A stretch of 34,063 nt of DNA from a virus (lineage: Duplodnaviria > Caudoviricetes): IMG/VR virus record IMGVR_UViG_3300018015_000022, positions 1 to 34,063 of that record, one strand, 5' to 3'. The translations under genes and the position numbers were made by a program. Under the pieces are notes generated by a model. The model did no database searches and was not told the DNA's origin. It saw only the letters and a list, made by a program, of their open reading frames with translations. Positions 2 through 27,671 of this stretch are shown here, piece after piece (position 1 is the stretch's first letter; each line of letters begins with the position of its first letter).

Positions 2-493
2 AAAGCTGCGGTTAAAAGGATACAACACAGCTCAAATCAGCAGCGACATGACTTAGCCAGCAAAGCGGCAAAGCAAAGATGGGCGGGTAAGAACAAGAAA
101 GTCGCAAAAGGTTCATTGAGGGTATTTAGCACAGCTTTAAACGCTGCCGAAAAACGTCTGGCAAAAGCAATTGAAGAAAGGGCAAAAGCCGCTAATCTTT
201 GGGCTGTACTTAGCGCTGAAATTCCTTCACTACAGCAAACGATTGCCGCACTCAAAAACCAGCAAAATCCTAACGTAGCGACAAGCACTAATCAAGCGGA
301 TCTTGCCACCATGATTTCCGGTCGATCTGCATCCGCTTCGTCGCCTGCTCAGCCCAATCCAATTGCCACGTCTACTCGGCCTTTACAAGCATCGCGTGCT
401 CGCGGGGCGGCCGTTGATGTAAACTTGGAAGGCGTTGATGACGAAAACAAATTTCTTGACGGAAGTGACGTTGCTGCGGGAGAATGGCACTGA
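2..493 (+). CDS. Hypothetical protein, 5'-truncated (basic N-terminal motif plus coiled coil)
   Basis: The frame of ORF 116..493 is open back to base 2 (KAAVKRIQHSSNQQRHDLASKAAKQRW...). R..A.KAA..RW resembles a small basic nucleic-acid-binding motif seen in phage proteins. Coiled-coil segment AAEKRLAKAIEERAK. Stop TGA at 491-493, 7 bp before the array. Confidence 0.7.
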   Translation, partial: KAAVKRIQHSSNQQRHDLASKAAKQRWAGKNKKVAKGSLRVFSTALNAAEKRLAKAIEERAKAANLWAVLSAEIPSLQQTIAALKNQQNPNVATSTNQADLATMISGRSASASSPAQPNPIATSTRPLQASRARGAAVDVNLEGVDDENKFLDGSDVAAGEWH

Positions 494-500
494 TTGAAAT

Positions 501-1393
501 GTTGCAAGTAAGCTAAAGTGCATCGAGCAGATGCAACCGTATCTGGATCAGGATGAAGCTGTCAAGTTTGGTCACAACAAAGCTAAAGTGCATCGAACAG
601 ATGCAACTATGAAGCATCGCTGGTATTTGCCCTTGATATAGGCGCAACAAGGCTAAAGTGCATCGAGCAGATGCAACGCCATCCTTTTGTTCGGACTGTC
701 GGTTGCTCCCGGTCTCAACAAAGCTAAAGTGCATCGTGCAGATGCAACTCTGGAGGTAGAAATATTTTTTATTTTTGAGTCGAGATGCTGCGGCAAATTT
801 AAAGTGCATCGGACAGATGCAACGCCACGGAATGGCAAAAAATCCGCAGCAGACGCTGTAGCAACAGGCTTTTAGTGCATCGGACAGATGCAACTGCCAA
901 CGTTTGTCAGAGCGCAGCAACCGATTTCATAGCAACGGGTTTTAAGTGCATCGAGCAGATGCAACGATCAGGAACGCAAACTTCCACGTCGTCGTTTGCG
1001 TCGCAACAAAACTAAAGTGCATCGAGCAGATGCAACCAGAAAGCGTTTAGGCGTGAATATGCCAGGCAGCGGTCGCAACAAAGCTAAAGTGCATCGTGCA
1101 GATGCAACCTTTGCAGCGTAATTCAGAAACGAATGCAGGTGGGTCGCAACAAAGCTAAAGTGCATCGTGCAGATGCAACAGATGTTAAGTGGAGAATGGG
1201 ATATAAAAAATGCGGTCGCAACAAAACTAAAGTGCATCGGACAGATGCAACCCAACAGGTGATTATGCAAATTGTGTGGACTAATGTAGCAACGCTTTTT
1301 GAGTGCATCGAACAGATGCAACCAGACAAACCTGTTAATGCTTTTAACATTTTTTCGTAACAATGAGCTAGCAGTGCATCGCACAGATGCGAC
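501..1393 (+). CRISPR. CRISPR-like array: 13 repeats (37 bp, consensus GTCGCAACAAAGCTAAAGTGCATCGNRCAGATGCAAC) and 12 unique spacers
   Basis: Repeats at 501-537, 571-607, 641-677, 712-748, 787-823, 858-894, 929-965, 1000-1036, 1072-1108, 1143-1179, 1215-1251, 1286-1322 and a degenerate copy at ~1355-1393. Spacers are about 32-35 bp (one of 38 bp) and all different. Invariant hairpin TGCATC-GNRCA-GATGC. Orientation is inferred, not proven. Confidence 0.93.
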
Positions 1394-1401
1394 AAGAGTT
1401 T

Positions 1402-2313
1402 TCAAGAAGAAATCATTTTAAATATTCCATTTCTCGGCTCGCTGCCGGCGTGGCACTCATTACGAAATTGGCAAGGTTTAGGCCAATCGCAACCGGTCAT
1501 TTGTTCATCCGGCAACGTCTTTAACGCTTCTATTGCTTTTAGCTTTCGCTTCATCAGATCCAGCATATGCTGGCGAGCGCTTTTTTCCGGCACGCCGATT
1601 TTGACAGAAAAGCAAAGGTCGGCAAGAACACCATCCGCAAGCATTTCCTCCAGCCAAGCCGTCGTCTCAATCTCATCATGATCTTCGCGCCAGACTGATT
1701 CCCATGAATCTTTAAATGGTTCATGTTGCGCATTCTTTTTACGAAATCGCAGTTTTTTGTTTCGCGGATGAAGTAATCCGTGCGTCCAAAAACTATGATA
1801 TTTTCCGCTGCGATGTGGACCTAAAACTATAACGGCAATTTGCATTGGCAACGAATAATTGCAAACGGCACCTAACGTAGCCCATGATCGACAAACAGAA
1901 TAATGCCGTTCATCGCTCCATGACGTTACACATACTACTCGACGTAAATATGCACCATCCGGCGATAGAAAACACGACGGTTTCCAGCACGAAAGCGTTT
2001 CAGGAATTAACCACGGCGGTTCCGATGGTTTCCGAACGGCCGTTGCAATAATGTCGCATAACGATGCCGCATGAATCACTTCGGAATGTAAATCATATTC
2101 GTGGCTATCTATTCCAGGATCGACGCCTAATCCATAAACCGTCTCGCCAGCAACATTACCGTAGTCTTTGCGATTTTTTTCAATTACTGCTGCACGAATT
2201 CCAGCATCAAGCATTTCCAAAGCGGCTAATTTCCGCTTTTCCCATCGCTTCATCCAAAAACATTGACGCGGGCAATGTTCAAATGTAGACAGTATTTCTG
2301 CGGTTCCAACCAT
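1402..2313 (-). CDS. Cas4/RecB-like PD-(D/E)XK-fold protein with four putative Fe-S cysteines
   Basis: N-terminal LSTFEHCPRQ and C-terminal CDWPKPCQFRNEC give the 1+3 Cys 'staple' typical of Cas4/AddB-like nucleases. A canonical D..(D/E)xK catalytic motif is not obvious. Confidence 0.7.
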   Translation of the reverse strand: MVGTAEILSTFEHCPRQCFWMKRWEKRKLAALEMLDAGIRAAVIEKNRKDYGNVAGETVYGLGVDPGIDSHEYDLHSEVIHAASLCDIIATAVRKPSEPPWLIPETLSCWKPSCFLSPDGAYLRRVVCVTSWSDERHYSVCRSWATLGAVCNYSLPMQIAVIVLGPHRSGKYHSFWTHGLLHPRNKKLRFRKKNAQHEPFKDSWESVWREDHDEIETTAWLEEMLADGVLADLCFSVKIGVPEKSARQHMLDLMKRKLKAIEALKTLPDEQMTGCDWPKPCQFRNECHAGSEPRNGIFKMISS

Positions 2314-2323
2314 ATGTAATGCC

Positions 2324-4651
2324 CTACGGCATCACTTCTGACCCTTCAGATTCCGTTTCATCTGGCGATTCAGGTTGCGTTTCTTTAGTAGGTTCTGTTG
2401 GCGCTGGTTGCTGCGCTGGTGCTTGAGCTGGCGTAGATTGAAGCTGCTGTGCTTGCTTTCGTAATTGCTGCAAAGATTGAGGTTGTCCAGCGCCAGAAGC
2501 CAAAAATCCGGCAACAGAAGGAGAAACAGTAATTGGTCTTCCCTCTTTGGCTGACGCTTGAATAACATTTCTGGTGACATCTGCTATTTTTAGCCGTTCT
2601 GCATTTGGCAATTGTCGTAATCCAGCAACTTCTTCCGGCGTCGCGCGAGATACCCATTCAACAAAACGAGGATTCCGTAAAAGAGTTTGAAATGCCAATT
2701 TACTACCAACATATCCCCATGCGCCAGTTCTAAAAGCTACTTCTCCTGCGCCATGAAACAACGGTCGAAACGCTTCCATTAAAGACGAGCCAAGAATTGC
2801 ATAATCATATCCCGTCAACCCTACCCGTTTTGCTTTACTTTCAAGCATTTTTACGCGTTCAGCTTGGACATCTAGCGTCGGGCGAGGCGCTGCAGCAACT
2901 GGCCGTTCACCACCCGGCAACGGTAACGGTTGCGTAGTCGGCCGTTCCGGATATTGTTGAAGCCCTTCACGCAAAGGCTCCTTTGACATACCTTTTAGCG
3001 CCGTACGCTTAGTATCAAGTTCAGAAGACAGCCGACTAATTTCTGGATCATAAGCCGACAGCTTTTCCCGCCGATTTGCAATCCCTTGTTCCTTAGCCAA
3101 TTCAGGGGATGTTTCTCGCAACGATTGCGTTTGTACTGTTCTTGGATCGGTCGGAGAATCATGGAATGCTTCCATCATTTGCGTATGCGAAGCACGTGCG
3201 CGCGTTAATTGCTTAGTCATTTTTTTACGCACCGCAATTGCATCCATGGACTGATCTATTCCGTTCAAAATCATTTTCAACGAGTTGTATGTGCCAGCTT
3301 CCAGACGGCCACCGCTATACATCCGGTTAAGAGTGTACGTACGAAGCCGTTGTAAACGCGCAAAACTAGTATTGCCCGCATTGTCTCCCACTGGCGGCAG
3401 TTCGCCGTATTGCATTTCATAAAACTGACTGTAGTTTCTGTCGTTAATAGGTACTTCTTTGTTGTTGGCAATGACTTGGCGCGCCTTGCCGTTTACGATC
3501 GGCCGTCCAACGTTATCAAATTTCACCCCTCCTTCGTGCAAAATGCTGCGTACAATCGGAAGTGTTACTGGGTCGGCATAAGCAGAAGCGCTTTTCGCAA
3601 TTGTCTTTAATGGCGCAACAGGCGTTTCTTCCTGATCTAACGCCTTATGCACTTGATCCCAATTTGCATCGTTTTCTTTTTCTGCTTTAGTTTGAGCAGC
3701 TTCGTGGCGCTTAGCTAATTCTTGAGACGACTTCTTTACATCATTTTCAAGACGAATACGATCTTGATGCTCTTTTAGAACTTTTAGATTCTTCTCCCGA
3801 ATTGCTGCACGTTCCTGCGCAGAAGTTCCTGCTTCTTCTCGGGCTTTTCCTAAAGCAGTCGTTCGTGCTTTTCCTGCTTTTTCAATTTCACCTTTTGCCG
3901 CTTCTTTTACTGCACCTTTTCCAATTCCGGCAATCGTCTGCGCACTTCTACGAAACTTTTCGCTAGCAGCTTCACGAAGATTAGGTAGACTGCTAAGGCG
4001 TTTACTGGCACCATGCGTAGCGGCACCAACAATTGCCATGCCAGCCAACGTTCCTATAGCATTTTGCACAGCCATTCTAGGATCGGTCTTCACATCTTCC
4101 TTAAATTGATCTCGCAAACCCACAAGCGTGTTACCTGGATCGACCATATCGAGCAGATTGTACACGTCATTAACATTTCCGCTAGAAGAACTAGCCTTAA
4201 AAAATGTTGACGCGAGATCTTTTAAATAACCAGGCGTACCGTATAAAACACGACCCGCTGCCCGATCCACATTGCTAATGCCAGGCGTTTTCATGTTTTT
4301 TATGGTCTCGCCCGGTACTGGCTGTAATCCCTGCTGAACACGTGCTTTAGCCTTTTCCAACCACGATGGTCCTTCGCCCTGGTGCGCAAAATCCTTTTCG
4401 TACTTCGACGCCTCATCAGGATGCAAATGATAACCTGCACTTTGCGCATCTTGAACACGGCTAAAAGGAACCATCTTTACGTCTTCAGTTCGCGTAAATC
4501 CGGCATTTGAAGCCGGAAGCATTCGATAGAGTCCTTCACCCTTTGGATTTGCCGTAAAATCAGGCATAGCAGAAGGAGCATTTTTTACAAACCAGTCCCC
4601 GCCTTTGGCATTTGTCTTTGGCGCATTTGCAGTGAACCAATCTTGAGCCAT
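2324..4651 (-). CDS. Putative internal virion / DNA ejection protein (large)
   Basis: 775 aa, Ala/Lys/Glu-rich and helical. Third of three coupled genes (TAATG overlap at 4651) after the tail genes, as in podovirus ejection-protein clusters. Confidence 0.55.
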   Translation of the reverse strand: MAQDWFTANAPKTNAKGGDWFVKNAPSAMPDFTANPKGEGLYRMLPASNAGFTRTEDVKMVPFSRVQDAQSAGYHLHPDEASKYEKDFAHQGEGPSWLEKAKARVQQGLQPVPGETIKNMKTPGISNVDRAAGRVLYGTPGYLKDLASTFFKASSSSGNVNDVYNLLDMVDPGNTLVGLRDQFKEDVKTDPRMAVQNAIGTLAGMAIVGAATHGASKRLSSLPNLREAASEKFRRSAQTIAGIGKGAVKEAAKGEIEKAGKARTTALGKAREEAGTSAQERAAIREKNLKVLKEHQDRIRLENDVKKSSQELAKRHEAAQTKAEKENDANWDQVHKALDQEETPVAPLKTIAKSASAYADPVTLPIVRSILHEGGVKFDNVGRPIVNGKARQVIANNKEVPINDRNYSQFYEMQYGELPPVGDNAGNTSFARLQRLRTYTLNRMYSGGRLEAGTYNSLKMILNGIDQSMDAIAVRKKMTKQLTRARASHTQMMEAFHDSPTDPRTVQTQSLRETSPELAKEQGIANRREKLSAYDPEISRLSSELDTKRTALKGMSKEPLREGLQQYPERPTTQPLPLPGGERPVAAAPRPTLDVQAERVKMLESKAKRVGLTGYDYAILGSSLMEAFRPLFHGAGEVAFRTGAWGYVGSKLAFQTLLRNPRFVEWVSRATPEEVAGLRQLPNAERLKIADVTRNVIQASAKEGRPITVSPSVAGFLASGAGQPQSLQQLRKQAQQLQSTPAQAPAQQPAPTEPTKETQPESPDETESEGSEVMP

Positions 4652-6937: not shown

Positions 6938-7057
6938 AATACACCTACTTGTAGTAAAATAAAGATGCCAAAGATATAGATCTTAGTTGGTTACAAGCAT
7001 TGTTGAGAAGTAACTACGGCACCTTCAGCTAATTCGTTGTATCCCGTTATTAACGGG

Positions 7058-7642
7058 ATGAAGATATGCTGCCGAAAAGACTGCAAATTTGCAGGCATTC
7101 CACAGCCCATCAAAAACTTTGACAAAAATCCAAAAATTAAGTCCGGAAGATGTGGGCATTGCCGATCATGTGCTAATGCGTACAAGGCAAAATGGGAGAA
7201 AAAATGGCGAAAAGAGCATCTTGAAGAGGCACGAGCCAGAGATCGGGCATATTTGCGTAGCGAACAACATCGTGCTTGGTATTTGCGCCGCCGCGACGAA
7301 TTAAACGCACTAGCTAAAGAATGGAGAAAGGCCCACCCAAAGCACGTAAAAGACTTATCTATTAAGAAAAGGTTTCGACAATACGGAGTAACTCCAGAGT
7401 GGTACGAAGAGACTTTACGCTTACAGGGGGGTAAATGCGCTATCTGCGGCTCGTTTGATCCAAAAAGTAATGGAAAGACCTTCCACGTTGACCACGACCA
7501 TTCTTGCTGCGGTAATTCGTGCCACGCTTGTGATAAATGCAGACGCGGTTTGCTTTGCGCCGTATGTAATACGAGGCTTGGAATTTTGGAAGACACGGAT
7601 TGGATCAAGCAAGCAACTGCGTATCTAGCTCGATATAAATAA
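7058..7642 (+). CDS. Endonuclease VII-family (His-Me finger) putative homing endonuclease, antisense to the operon
   Basis: QGGKCAICG...FHVDHDH...RGLLCAVCNTRLGIL is the EndoVII motif. N-terminal Cys-rich segment. Start could be TTG 7037 or ATG 7058. Confidence 0.88.
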   Translation: MKICCRKDCKFAGIPQPIKNFDKNPKIKSGRCGHCRSCANAYKAKWEKKWRKEHLEEARARDRAYLRSEQHRAWYLRRRDELNALAKEWRKAHPKHVKDLSIKKRFRQYGVTPEWYEETLRLQGGKCAICGSFDPKSNGKTFHVDHDHSCCGNSCHACDKCRRGLLCAVCNTRLGILEDTDWIKQATAYLARYK

Positions 7643-23475: not shown

Positions 23476-24483
23476 TTAAAACTGTCCGACAAACGCTAAA
23501 AGCTGAACGGTTTCTCCAGATAAATTTTGCCCGGATACAACCTCTGATCCAATTGAAGCTGCTGCACTCACAGTCACATTGGTTGCCCCCGAAATGGTTA
23601 CTGCGCCTGTCGTAGTAAGTGCTCTGCCATTAAGTGTGCCGCCGCCAAGGGTAACCCCACTTACCGTCAAAATGTTTCCGTTTACTGTCGAAGTTGCTAC
23701 CGAGGTAAAAGCGCTTCCAGCTACAAAAACCACATTTGCGGCTTGTGCGCCGTTAATCAGCGCAACCGTCTGTCCACTAGCAAGGTTGATCGTTGATCCC
23801 GCAACGAACACAAACACAGCACTTGAATTTCCTTGAGCGTCCAGAATAATTCCCGTAGGCATTGTCAAACTGGTCGACCCAAAATAATATCCTGGCGTGT
23901 AAGTCGATGCTGTCGAGCCATTGCCACCCGTGCTTAGATTGGTCAGGCCAGACAATGTCGGGGTCAACCCCTGGTAATAAATGATTGCCGCCGTCAACGC
24001 TGTTTGCGCAGCGGATGCAGCGGTGTTGTCAATTACCGCCGGAGAAGTCAAAGTGCCTGGAGGAAATCCGCTAATGCTTGTGGTGGGATAGCTTCCGATG
24101 TTCCCACCCGTAATGACGGAACTTCCAGTGTTTGTGATGCCGGAGTATGCCAGCAACGCGTAATTAGCGGCTGTGCCAAGGCGTGTCGTGACAACGGAGC
24201 CCCCACCGCTAGTGCTTGCAAGAAACCAACGTAAATACCACTGCTGCCGAACGCCAATTCCCGTGGGATTGGCATAAACCACGTAATTTTTGCTTATGCT
24301 TTCTTCGCCGCCGATAAGCGCATCAATGTAGTAATTCGACAAGTTCAGTGTTACCAAATCTCCTGTACCAGCAACGTAAGCCGTCGGTCCAGTACCACTT
24401 CCGACAAAAAGTCCGCGCCGTCCAACAAATTCTGGATAGAGTGGACCTGCTCCGGTACCTTTTCCGATCGCTGTAAGAATCAC
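23476..24483 (-). CDS. Putative decoration protein paralog with inserted DUF3494 ice-binding-like domain
   Basis: N- and C-termini align with the 120-aa neighbour. Insert LGTAANYALLAYSGITNTGSSVITG.NIG..P..SISGFPPG...TPGYY...LDAQGNSSAVFVF...LINGAQAANV.F...GNIL...NGRALT matches DUF3494. Confidence 0.88.
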   Translation of the reverse strand: MILTAIGKGTGAGPLYPEFVGRRGLFVGSGTGPTAYVAGTGDLVTLNLSNYYIDALIGGEESISKNYVVYANPTGIGVRQQWYLRWFLASTSGGGSVVTTRLGTAANYALLAYSGITNTGSSVITGGNIGSYPTTSISGFPPGTLTSPAVIDNTAASAAQTALTAAIIYYQGLTPTLSGLTNLSTGGNGSTASTYTPGYYFGSTSLTMPTGIILDAQGNSSAVFVFVAGSTINLASGQTVALINGAQAANVVFVAGSAFTSVATSTVNGNILTVSGVTLGGGTLNGRALTTTGAVTISGATNVTVSAAASIGSEVVSGQNLSGETVQLLAFVGQF

Positions 24484-24504: not shown

Positions 24505-24867
24505 TTAAAACTGACCAACCAGCGCACCAAGCTGAACAGACTCGCCTGAAAGGTTAGTCGTACTTGTCACTTCGGTTCCGACCGTGCCAGCAGATGCCAA
24601 AGCGTAGAACCAGCGTAGATACCATTGCTGTCGTGCACCAGTTCCTGCAGGTGCTGGGTAAACCAAATACTTGCCGCTTACGCTTGTTACGCCACCGAGA
24701 AGAGCATCGATATAGTAGCTAGGCAAGGGCAATGTCACCAGATCTCCCGTGCCAGAAACGTAGGATGCAGGCCCAGTACCATATCCGACAAAGGTTGCGC
24801 GTCGACCGATAAAGTCCGGATAGAGTGGACCAGCGCCACTGCCTTTTACGATCGCTGTGAGAACCAT
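24505..24867 (-). CDS. Putative capsid decoration / minor structural protein
   Basis: 120 aa, SD AAGGAG, located after the capsid genes. Paralog of 23476..24483. Confidence 0.6.
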   Translation of the reverse strand: MVLTAIVKGSGAGPLYPDFIGRRATFVGYGTGPASYVSGTGDLVTLPLPSYYIDALLGGVTSVSGKYLVYPAPAGTGARQQWYLRWFYALASAGTVGTEVTSTTNLSGESVQLGALVGQF

Positions 24868-27065: not shown

Positions 27066-27671
27066 CTAGGCAATAGCTAGAACTTTTTGAACTGTTGCCG
27101 TATGCTGCTCCTTTCGATTTTTCCAATCAATTCGAGCTTTTTCGTTCTTTGCTTGAAGCCAAGCTGGATCAGATGCTTTGCGCCGGTAATATTCCGCTTT
27201 TTGCTCCCTACGCGCTTTAGCAGTTGGGCTACTACGCCGTTCCCGTTCCTCTTCATAAAACGAAAGGAGACTATTTTTTAAAAAATCCATCGAAAGTCCG
27301 CTTGTAGACTTTCCTTTTAAAAACTCCAAGCTATTAGTTGCATCGACTTGTCCCTTACGCCGTGCCGTCAAAAATTCGTAAATAAGAGCTATAAAAATAC
27401 GCGCGCGATCGCCACAAATCTCCCAAGAATGGCAACCGCTTTTATTTAGGCCACGGATACTTCCGCCAAACCAATCACGCAACCAATAAAGAAGTTCCGG
27501 ATCTTTTTGTGGAACAGTAACCATAAATCCGCGTTTGGTATGCCCACACAACCGGCACGTCCCTTCGCCCTCGTAGATTCCTGCGGACCATGCGATATCA
27601 GTCGCGGTAGGAATCTTTGTGGCTTCAAGCTCGGGTTTGTTTGGCCTTGTCCAGTTATTCATTGCAATCAA
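27066..27671 (-). CDS. LAGLIDADG-family putative homing endonuclease
   Basis: DIAWSAGIYEGEG motif, V.QKDPELLYWLRDWFGGSI and a basic C-terminal tail. Start TTG 27671 or ATG 27662. Confidence 0.8.
   Translation of the reverse strand: MIAMNNWTRPNKPELEATKIPTATDIAWSAGIYEGEGTCRLCGHTKRGFMVTVPQKDPELLYWLRDWFGGSIRGLNKSGCHSWEICGDRARIFIALIYEFLTARRKGQVDATNSLEFLKGKSTSGLSMDFLKNSLLSFYEEERERRSSPTAKARREQKAEYYRRKASDPAWLQAKNEKARIDWKNRKEQHTATVQKVLAIA

Follow-up and report, generated by a model that had tools for sequence, protein, structure and literature searches.

The array at positions 501..1393 of the 34,063-nucleotide stretch of DNA analysed here (the window) is, in the reading that we consider probable, a leaderless CRISPR array of a likely temperate Acidobacteriota phage. 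Its repeats would carry an RNA handle for a Cas12m-like effector of ~750 amino acids encoded in the same genome, and would have become mosaic by drift and by recombination at the handle, away from cas1-cas2. The array would be transcribed by read-through from the upstream gene; the effector would process the transcript inside the repeat, with the handle as its grip on the crRNA, and guides of about 17-20 nt would bind DNA behind a TTN PAM, most likely silencing or blocking competing phages. The spacers themselves would first have been captured by a type I-C-like Cas4-Cas1-Cas2, after which cassettes made up of handle, spacer and the next 16 nt would have been deleted, duplicated and exchanged by short-homology recombination, with preferential loss of the units that lie between identical repeats. 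Away from cas1-cas2, repeats would thus drift and recombine at the handle rather than being recopied.

The source sequence is a 34-kb virus record that carries mostly minus-strand virion genes. On its plus strand, a strand assignment taken from PAM-flanked protospacers of relatives, the array comprises 13 repeats of 37 nt (a length counted from the 3' end, with a deduced 5' boundary) and 12 spacers of 33, 33, 34, 38, 34, 34, 34, 35, 34, 35, 34 and 34 nt, all 12 of them unique. It accordingly shows the direct repeats and unique spacers of constant length that define a CRISPR array, with 13 repeats and spacers of 33-38 nt. The first repeat starts 7 nt past the stop codon of the upstream plus-strand gene and the last ends 8 nt ahead of the stop codon of a convergent gene; because the array is squeezed between these two stop codons, there is no room for a leader. 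Overlapping contigs of metagenome run X7 span 89-3000 with no differing letters, and contigs of run X17 span the array with a single substitution within it, at 1290, so the array is not an assembly artefact. A search of Rfam gave no match below E 2.8.

The upstream gene (2..493, plus strand) is the 3' part of a conserved phage gene with no Pfam or PHROG match. Its transcript probably reads into the array; the search for a promoter ahead of the array gave one weak sigma70-like site at 456-485, at chance level. The convergent gene (1402..2313, minus strand) is a core phage gene of 303 amino acids with 119 homologs and four invariant cysteines, which are spaced like those of an iron-sulfur staple. 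It was considered as a Cas4 and rejected, having no Pfam, PADLOC or NCBIfam match and an hhalign probability of 1.3%; a role as an array-linked Cas4 partner was likewise rejected, as four of eight homolog loci lack an array of this repeat in the DNA examined.

Twelve of the 13 repeats are distinct, and the only identical pair is repeats 9 (1072..1108, loop GTGCA) and 10 (1143..1179). A main dialect is represented by repeats 2 (571..607, loop GAACA), 3 (641..677, GAGCA), 4 (712..748, GTGCA), 8 (1000..1036, GAGCA) and 11 (1215..1251, GGACA), and a T-rich dialect by repeats 6 (858..894, GGACA), 7 (929..965, GAGCA) and 12 (1286..1322, GAACA). Repeat 1 (501..537, loop GAGCA) has its handle at 517-537, repeat 5 (787..823, loop GGACA) has a divergent 5' half, and the terminal repeat 13 (1357..1393) is the most divergent. 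Deviations from the array consensus fall in 48 of 208 cells at positions 1-16 and in 13 of 26 at loop positions 26-27, against one of 247 in the rest of the repeat (Fisher p = 5e-17). The AGTGCATC..GATGCAAC part carries that single deviation, an A-to-G change in repeat 13 (A35G), the sole stem change of the array, which retains a G-U wobble pair.

A preliminary description of this array, made from its letters alone, had reported one identical repeat pair, five loop types (GAGCA, GAACA, GTGCA, GGACA and GCACA), and a near-invariant 3' hairpin behind a variable 5' region of ~16 nt, all of which the counts bear out. Its term "extremely polymorphic" needs one qualification, since distances from the consensus fall into two tiers: eight repeats lie 1-3 nt from the consensus, and repeats 5, 6, 7, 12 and 13, interleaved rather than polar, lie 8-13 nt away. 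The repeat ends that it gave as GTTGCA...ATGCAAC also need narrowing, since repeat 1 alone has a perfect GTTGCA start.

The handle, repeat columns 17-37, is a 21-nt hairpin whose conservation was followed through related phages with search anchors blind to pairing at the inner stem. With the inner stem left free, 340 distinct repeats were collected. In these, pair 23-31 is T-A in 295 and C-G in 39, pair 24-30 is C-G in 297 and T-A in 31, and pair 22-32 is A-T in 314, G-C in 10 and G-T in 14. Among 79 distinct 21-mers, 228 of 237 inner-stem cells pair; 5000 shuffles gave 206 on average and never more than 215. This statistic counts variants rather than events, because the repeats are related by descent. 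Fully compensated stems are seen in several lineages. Judged by these compensatory changes in its 6-bp stem, the handle is an RNA structure under selection. Covariance folding and a comparison with arrays of related phages were among the checks named in the preliminary description, which had proposed selection on a structured handle of ~21 nt 5' of the spacer, as in type V crRNAs; the stem covariation, and the orientation given by two TTC-flanked protospacers, sustain that proposal. Strain pairs differed too little for substitution rates to be of use, with 11 changes in 125 units.

Outside the stem, 279 distinct repeats yielded no covarying helix in the 5' half and no pairing of the 5' half with the loop, which has only 5 nt. 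The 5' half is nevertheless partly conserved, with an entropy near or below 1 bit at 7 of 16 positions, a constraint that pure drift leaves unexplained. The handle matches the core of the Cas12m guide scaffold: an unpaired A comes first, then a G:A(-2) pair and a helix of 6 bp that stops at -3, and last a C(-1). Within this match, the search pattern itself had prescribed G18 and some of the outer stem. In the accessible text of PMC10442227, the Cas12m2 scaffold core has a flipped A followed by the G:A(-2) pair and six pairs, the last at -3, and its C(-1) is read specifically. The second helix of the Cas12m scaffold, which forms a pseudoknot with the first, was not found in these repeats.

The handle pattern occurs at 52 loci on 22 IMG/VR contigs, several of which are copies of one phage and three of which overlap the window's own genome. 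In species genomes it occurs at 13 loci, five of them with arrays, including Telmatobacter bradus, a Terracidiphilus MAG and an Acidobacteriaceae MAG; the other matches are isolated and some are likely chance. The chromosome of T. bradus, a cultured Acidobacterium, carries a near-uniform 7-repeat array, a 2-repeat array and a single isolated repeat (L058:9285-11658), grouped around a fragment of a phage-like gene and a methyltransferase-like gene, in a genome with no effector or cas1 match; the locus is likely a prophage remnant.

Proteins of 745-770 amino acids with a C-terminal TNB zinc finger are encoded directly upstream of such arrays in relatives, and belong to a family of 104 homologs, some from Terracidiphilus. 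Their PDB sequence matches are Cas12m in four of four cases, with no Cas12f among them. An AlphaFold model of the 747-residue effector of metagenome locus L134 (pLDDT 88) gave Cas12m as its top four Foldseek matches (E 7e-21 to 1e-16), and PADLOC assigned Cas12u1 (V-U1) at E 2e-28, one model labelled Cas12f being level with it. Cas12f was rejected as the closest effector, its best Foldseek E-value being 2.6e-11 against 7e-21 for Cas12m2. The Cas12f/Cas14 lead that had been drawn from the repeat ends is therefore not supported: sequence and fold both place the effector closest to Cas12m, and a simple search for a 12-nt anti-repeat beside the effector found none in four of five loci and two short matches in the fifth (L110).

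Full-length members of the family measure about 710-800 amino acids, against the ~600 of a compact Cas12m. An extra beta-rich N-terminal domain of ~100 amino acids is confidently modelled (L134:10001-10318). Structure comparison found no clear counterpart for it (Foldseek E 0.13; best Z 4.4, PAS-like; nothing in the Atlas), which does not by itself make it a new fold. The RuvC triad is D-E-D in the L134 effector and in 53 of 86 aligned homologs, E-E-D in 15 and H-Q-D in 6; D-E-D orthologs of Cas12m did not cut DNA, according to the available portion of PMC11013384. From sequence and fold comparison, the system likely works like type V-M and likely belongs to it formally, with an effector above the usual size and a handle of one helix. 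In one lineage, the array adjoining the effector gene is inverted and faces that gene (L119:12305-12555).

A lone handle stands 15-23 nt before the effector start codon in eight of 18 loci (L134:9964-9984, L117, L118, L119, L122, L123, L133 and L138), a sample that includes one locus with no more than 24 nt of upstream sequence and two whose starts are uncertain. These lone handles carry compensated stem variants, and would likely place the effector's own mRNA under feedback control. The same 17-nt sequence resembling a ribosome site follows a handle in three lineages (L119 near 9985, L134 near 17950 and G006 near 2485); in one of these places it precedes the effector gene, and in the others it lies apart from that gene.

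The effector gene is absent from the window and from the overlapping virus record G013, which overlaps the window downstream for 27 kb (99.96-99.98% identity) and contributes one more array. It is found among five further arrays on metagenome loci L134-L137. Read depth of L136:4700-12300 in four runs was 9.1, 24.2, about 5 and 36.1, against 9.2, 24.4, 4.7 and 39.3 for the window, a match in all four. The main 5' half of the window's repeats recurs exactly in L134-L136 and in G013, and is at least four changes away in other lineages. In the relative L133, the upstream gene (81% nucleotide identity), a 20-repeat array and the effector all lie on one contig. No contig bridging the window and the effector locus was found, and an attempt to extend the window's contig upstream gave no matches. 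From depth, repeat dialect and the L133 layout, window and effector would likely belong to the same genome. Together the window, G013 and the L134-L137 pieces hold seven arrays with 91 repeats, 82 of them distinct, and gave no hit for cas1 or cas4.

How repeats become mosaic is suggested by lineages that differ in their adaptation genes. Twelve lineages have an array just downstream of the effector, and a single repeat type is found in both of those with cas4-cas1 (in 11 and 22 copies) and in none of the ten without (Fisher p = 0.015). With two positives and lineages that are related, the sample is small and non-independent, and "without" refers to tblastn searches that found nothing in partial records or in flanks of no more than 10 kb. 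Cas1 of the two lineages is of type I-C, above the NCBIfam cut-off, and a Cas2-like frame was recognised by eye. Remote arrays of both cas1-bearing phages are heterogeneous, made of versions of their own repeat. Two counter-cases are on record: the T. bradus array, near-uniform with two types in seven repeats in a genome with no cas1 match, and array 9 of G003, in which the first four repeats are identical. The spacer-length mode is 34 in uniform and mosaic arrays alike, as expected if all spacers were first captured by the same kind of integrase. TTC is the PAM of type I-C. A host type I-C array as the source of the repeats was ruled out, the host type I-C repeat seen in L234 being different.

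Rearranged arrays show where the joints lie. A junction was counted as informative when the same spacer stood in two contexts whose upstream 5' halves differed by at least 2 nt, and uninformative rows were dropped. Eight cases remained, and in seven of them the two contexts share the same upstream handle despite 2-12 nt of difference in the 5' half that precedes it. A random pair of handles would be the same with a probability of 0.067, a figure that is higher within a lineage. The downstream 5' half moves with the spacer in five of the eight and differs in the three between-lineage cases, which may instead reflect two separate captures of one spacer, or a conversion that came afterwards. Since handle and spacer mostly keep together across a change of the preceding 5' half, the unit of rearrangement looks like handle, spacer and the next 16 nt, with crossovers placed at identical handles. 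One 35-nt spacer is identical between lineage B and L134. The suggestion, made at the outset, that the array had been assembled from several donor arrays holds to the extent that cassettes move between arrays and occasionally between phages; the repeat types of the window, on the other hand, are those of its own lineage rather than of unrelated donors. None of its 12 spacers has a full-length twin in another array.

The same observations could mean, as the preliminary description also suggested, that diversity is itself selected, the varied loop and 5' half shortening identical tracts and so guarding a large guide library in a recombinase-encoding phage. This explanation has a real, if minor, chance of being correct. 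The longest identical tract between two repeats of the window has a median of 12 nt and is at most 12 nt in 43 of 78 pairs, identical adjacent pairs make up only 4.3% in heterogeneous arrays, and indels between identical handles are observed. Genes for RecA, ERF or RecT lie near the effector locus in several phages, with a putative part in rearrangement, and polymorphism that guards terminal repeats from collapse is discussed in the accessible part of PMC8047081. However, loss of units between identical repeats gives the same pattern without selection, 17 of the 78 pairs still share at least 21 nt, and a Pfam scan of 115 proteins found no diversifying enzyme such as a reverse transcriptase. 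Drift combined with recombination at the handle remains the preferred account. A broader reading is tentative and rather doubtful as a whole: the clade would pool a CRISPR library mostly without a Cas1 of its own, a few cas4-cas1-cas2 members minting spacers while the rest trade handle-bounded cassettes among up to seven arrays and among phages, keep repeats diverse against collapse, and use the handle as a feedback switch in the leader of the effector's own mRNA.

Targets are known for few spacers. Of 350 distinct clade spacers, two have matches in other phage records, G010 and G015, with 4 and 6 mismatches and CTTC directly ahead of both; a control with reversed spacers gave none. These two TTC-flanked protospacers fix the plus-strand orientation of the arrays, and their presence in other phages suggests competition between phages. 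The two protospacer-carrying records also bear a 3-repeat mini-array or a single repeat of the same type (for G010, at the end of L102). For the 12 spacers of the window, no target was found in the window, in the collected clade DNA or in 0.9 Mb of candidate target phages. Against 401 Acidobacteriaceae genomes they gave only repeat matches and matches at chance level, and against phage and plasmid collections a best E of 3. A PAM-plus-seed scan of IMG/VR returned no match for spacer 4, and 4 and 9 for spacers 9 and 7, all of which diverge straight after the seed (12-16 mismatches).

Spacer 4 (749..786, 38 nt) bears on a further explanation, in which the array is old and mostly regulatory, its guides being directed by short complementarity at host or phage promoters in the manner of crlRNA/Cracr guides, so that only handle and seed are kept. 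Its first 17 nt match an L133 spacer with two mismatches and the remainder is unrelated; the likeness, confined to the first 17-19 nt, fits the 17-bp heteroduplex of Cas12m2 (as given in the available text of PMC10442227). In a few other pairs the likeness is limited to 13-17 nt at the 5' end, full-length targets were not found, lone handles precede genes (the effector gene included), and the accessible portions of 10.1101/2024.10.29.618823 and 10.1101/2023.03.03.530964 supply precedent. We nonetheless regard this explanation as unlikely. Under a strict control the likeness is weak, with two pairs alike at the 5' end only against one at the 3' end only among 61,075; one-mismatch matches to the PAM and seed of spacer 4 turn up in 2 of 301 Acidobacteriaceae genomes, no more than chance would give; in the clade's own DNA, PAMs are not enriched beside seeds; and the only two protospacer matches are long and lie in other phages.

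It is very improbable that the array is decaying into a relic, or has been recruited to terminate transcription between the convergent genes, and yields no functional guides. Read on the minus strand, nine of the 13 repeats (519-1249) do resemble the hairpin and T-tract of an intrinsic terminator, against a shuffle mean of 2.2, and the array is leaderless, stands at the end of the late operon and has no targets found. Against this, the handle is almost wholly spared (the one deviating cell in 247), including unpaired bases useless to a terminator, periodicity is kept, and at this convergent junction G016 has a T-rich array that does not yield the T-tract. That the array serves a host CRISPR system or a Cas12f/Cas14 effector instead of the phage's Cas12m-like protein is scarcely credible: the missing effector in the window and the one PADLOC Cas12f model favour it, but the host type I-C repeat is different, the repeat is found mainly in this phage clade, the full-length effector is absent from 401 Acidobacteriaceae genomes (with one partial match), and Cas12m structures beat those of Cas12f by at least five orders of magnitude in E-value.

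Related records carry the window's virion genes at 70-85% nucleotide identity and up to five arrays each, and five of them are classed as proviruses; these records make an Acidobacteriota host and a temperate life style likely. The runs that hold the window come from peat or wetland metagenomes in 20 of 23 rows among those listed. Several other features of the window are recorded here. A dispersed motif with internal inverted repeats has five copies at or near virion gene starts (7719, 13405, 15128, 27715 and 29300) and similar stretches in relatives, and is possibly a late promoter or structured leader. A protein with an ice-binding-like domain (Pfam PF11999, E 2.5e-33) is encoded at 23476-24483 (minus strand) among the head genes, and an adjoining shorter gene (24505-24867, minus strand) shares with it a duplicated stretch of 276 nt. 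Two free-standing endonuclease genes, endonuclease VII-like and HNH, lie among the virion genes at 7037-7642 (plus strand) and 27066-27671 (minus strand).

Type V-M (V-U1) Cas12m, represented by MmCas12m2 (PDB 8hhl/8hio; PMC10442227), GoCas12m (8pm4; PMC11013384) and UnCas12m4a (23vu), is the closest known system, in sequence and fold, in the 6-bp helix, the G:A(-2) pair and the C(-1) at the end of the handle, in a T-rich 5' PAM, in a single repeat-derived guide for which no anti-repeat was found, and in the usual absence of adaptation genes. The present system differs in its effector of about 750 amino acids with the extra N-terminal domain of ~100, and in a handle that is a single 21-nt hairpin with no second helix detected. 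It also has several mosaic-repeat arrays per genome, whereas the accessible text of PMC11013384 has high repeat conservation between orthologous systems, and cas4-cas1(I-C type)-cas2 in two of 12 lineages.

Two phage systems come nearer in life style, as far as the available text of each goes. MvCas12m (10.64898/2026.09.14.751636) is likewise a phage-encoded Cas12m with a D-E-D triad, no adaptation genes and no protospacers found; it has 610 amino acids, one array of eight spacers with one consensus repeat, and a myxobacterial host. Cas12r of the Thermus Lalka phages (10.64898/2026.04.20.719267) shares a temperate-phage type V system with repeats degenerate throughout the array, no cas1, and guides against competing elements. 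It differs in belonging to another effector branch, and in its 29-bp repeats, ARG PAM, active nuclease and one array; its authors propose adaptation by a host type I-E system rather than cassette recombination. Viral mini-arrays, solitary repeat units and crlRNA/Cracr guides resemble the present case in having arrays or lone repeats away from cas genes and spacers conserved in the seed only, but in the accessible parts of the reports (10.1101/2023.03.03.530964; 10.1101/2024.10.29.618823; PMC11656645) they use host effectors and 1-3 spacers, while here there are up to 28 repeats and the phage lineage's own effector.

Much of this is already known. Phage Cas12m and degenerate repeats in a type V array of a cas1-less phage are in print, and the available portions of three further sources report viruses with more than one array (PMC12607003), some prophages with V-M (PMC11656645) and repeats that recombine with one another (PMC8047081). 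The effector may already be tabulated in supplements to surveys of Cas12m and TnpB (PMC11013384, PMC10691335). A literature search, with most subscription papers beyond its reach, gave nothing on this clade, the reduced handle, the cas1 contrast or handle-bounded cassettes, nor on Cas12 arrays of peatland Acidobacteria phages or autoregulation of Cas12 via a repeat in its own mRNA. A 2022 survey in Cell of virus-encoded Cas systems reportedly covers the Cas-mu family.

The 340 natural repeat variants map the bases that a Cas12m-like effector needs, and point to the 21-nt handle. Non-identical repeats within one array are what stable multiplexed guide arrays need, and repeat finders that require high identity would likely miss arrays of this kind. 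Where CRISPR arrays of phages and plasmids persist without cas1-cas2, the usual explanation is that adaptation enzymes are borrowed from the host. This clade offers a natural comparison, with uniform arrays beside cas1, mosaic arrays without it and visible junctions between cassettes, in which cassette exchange is directly testable.
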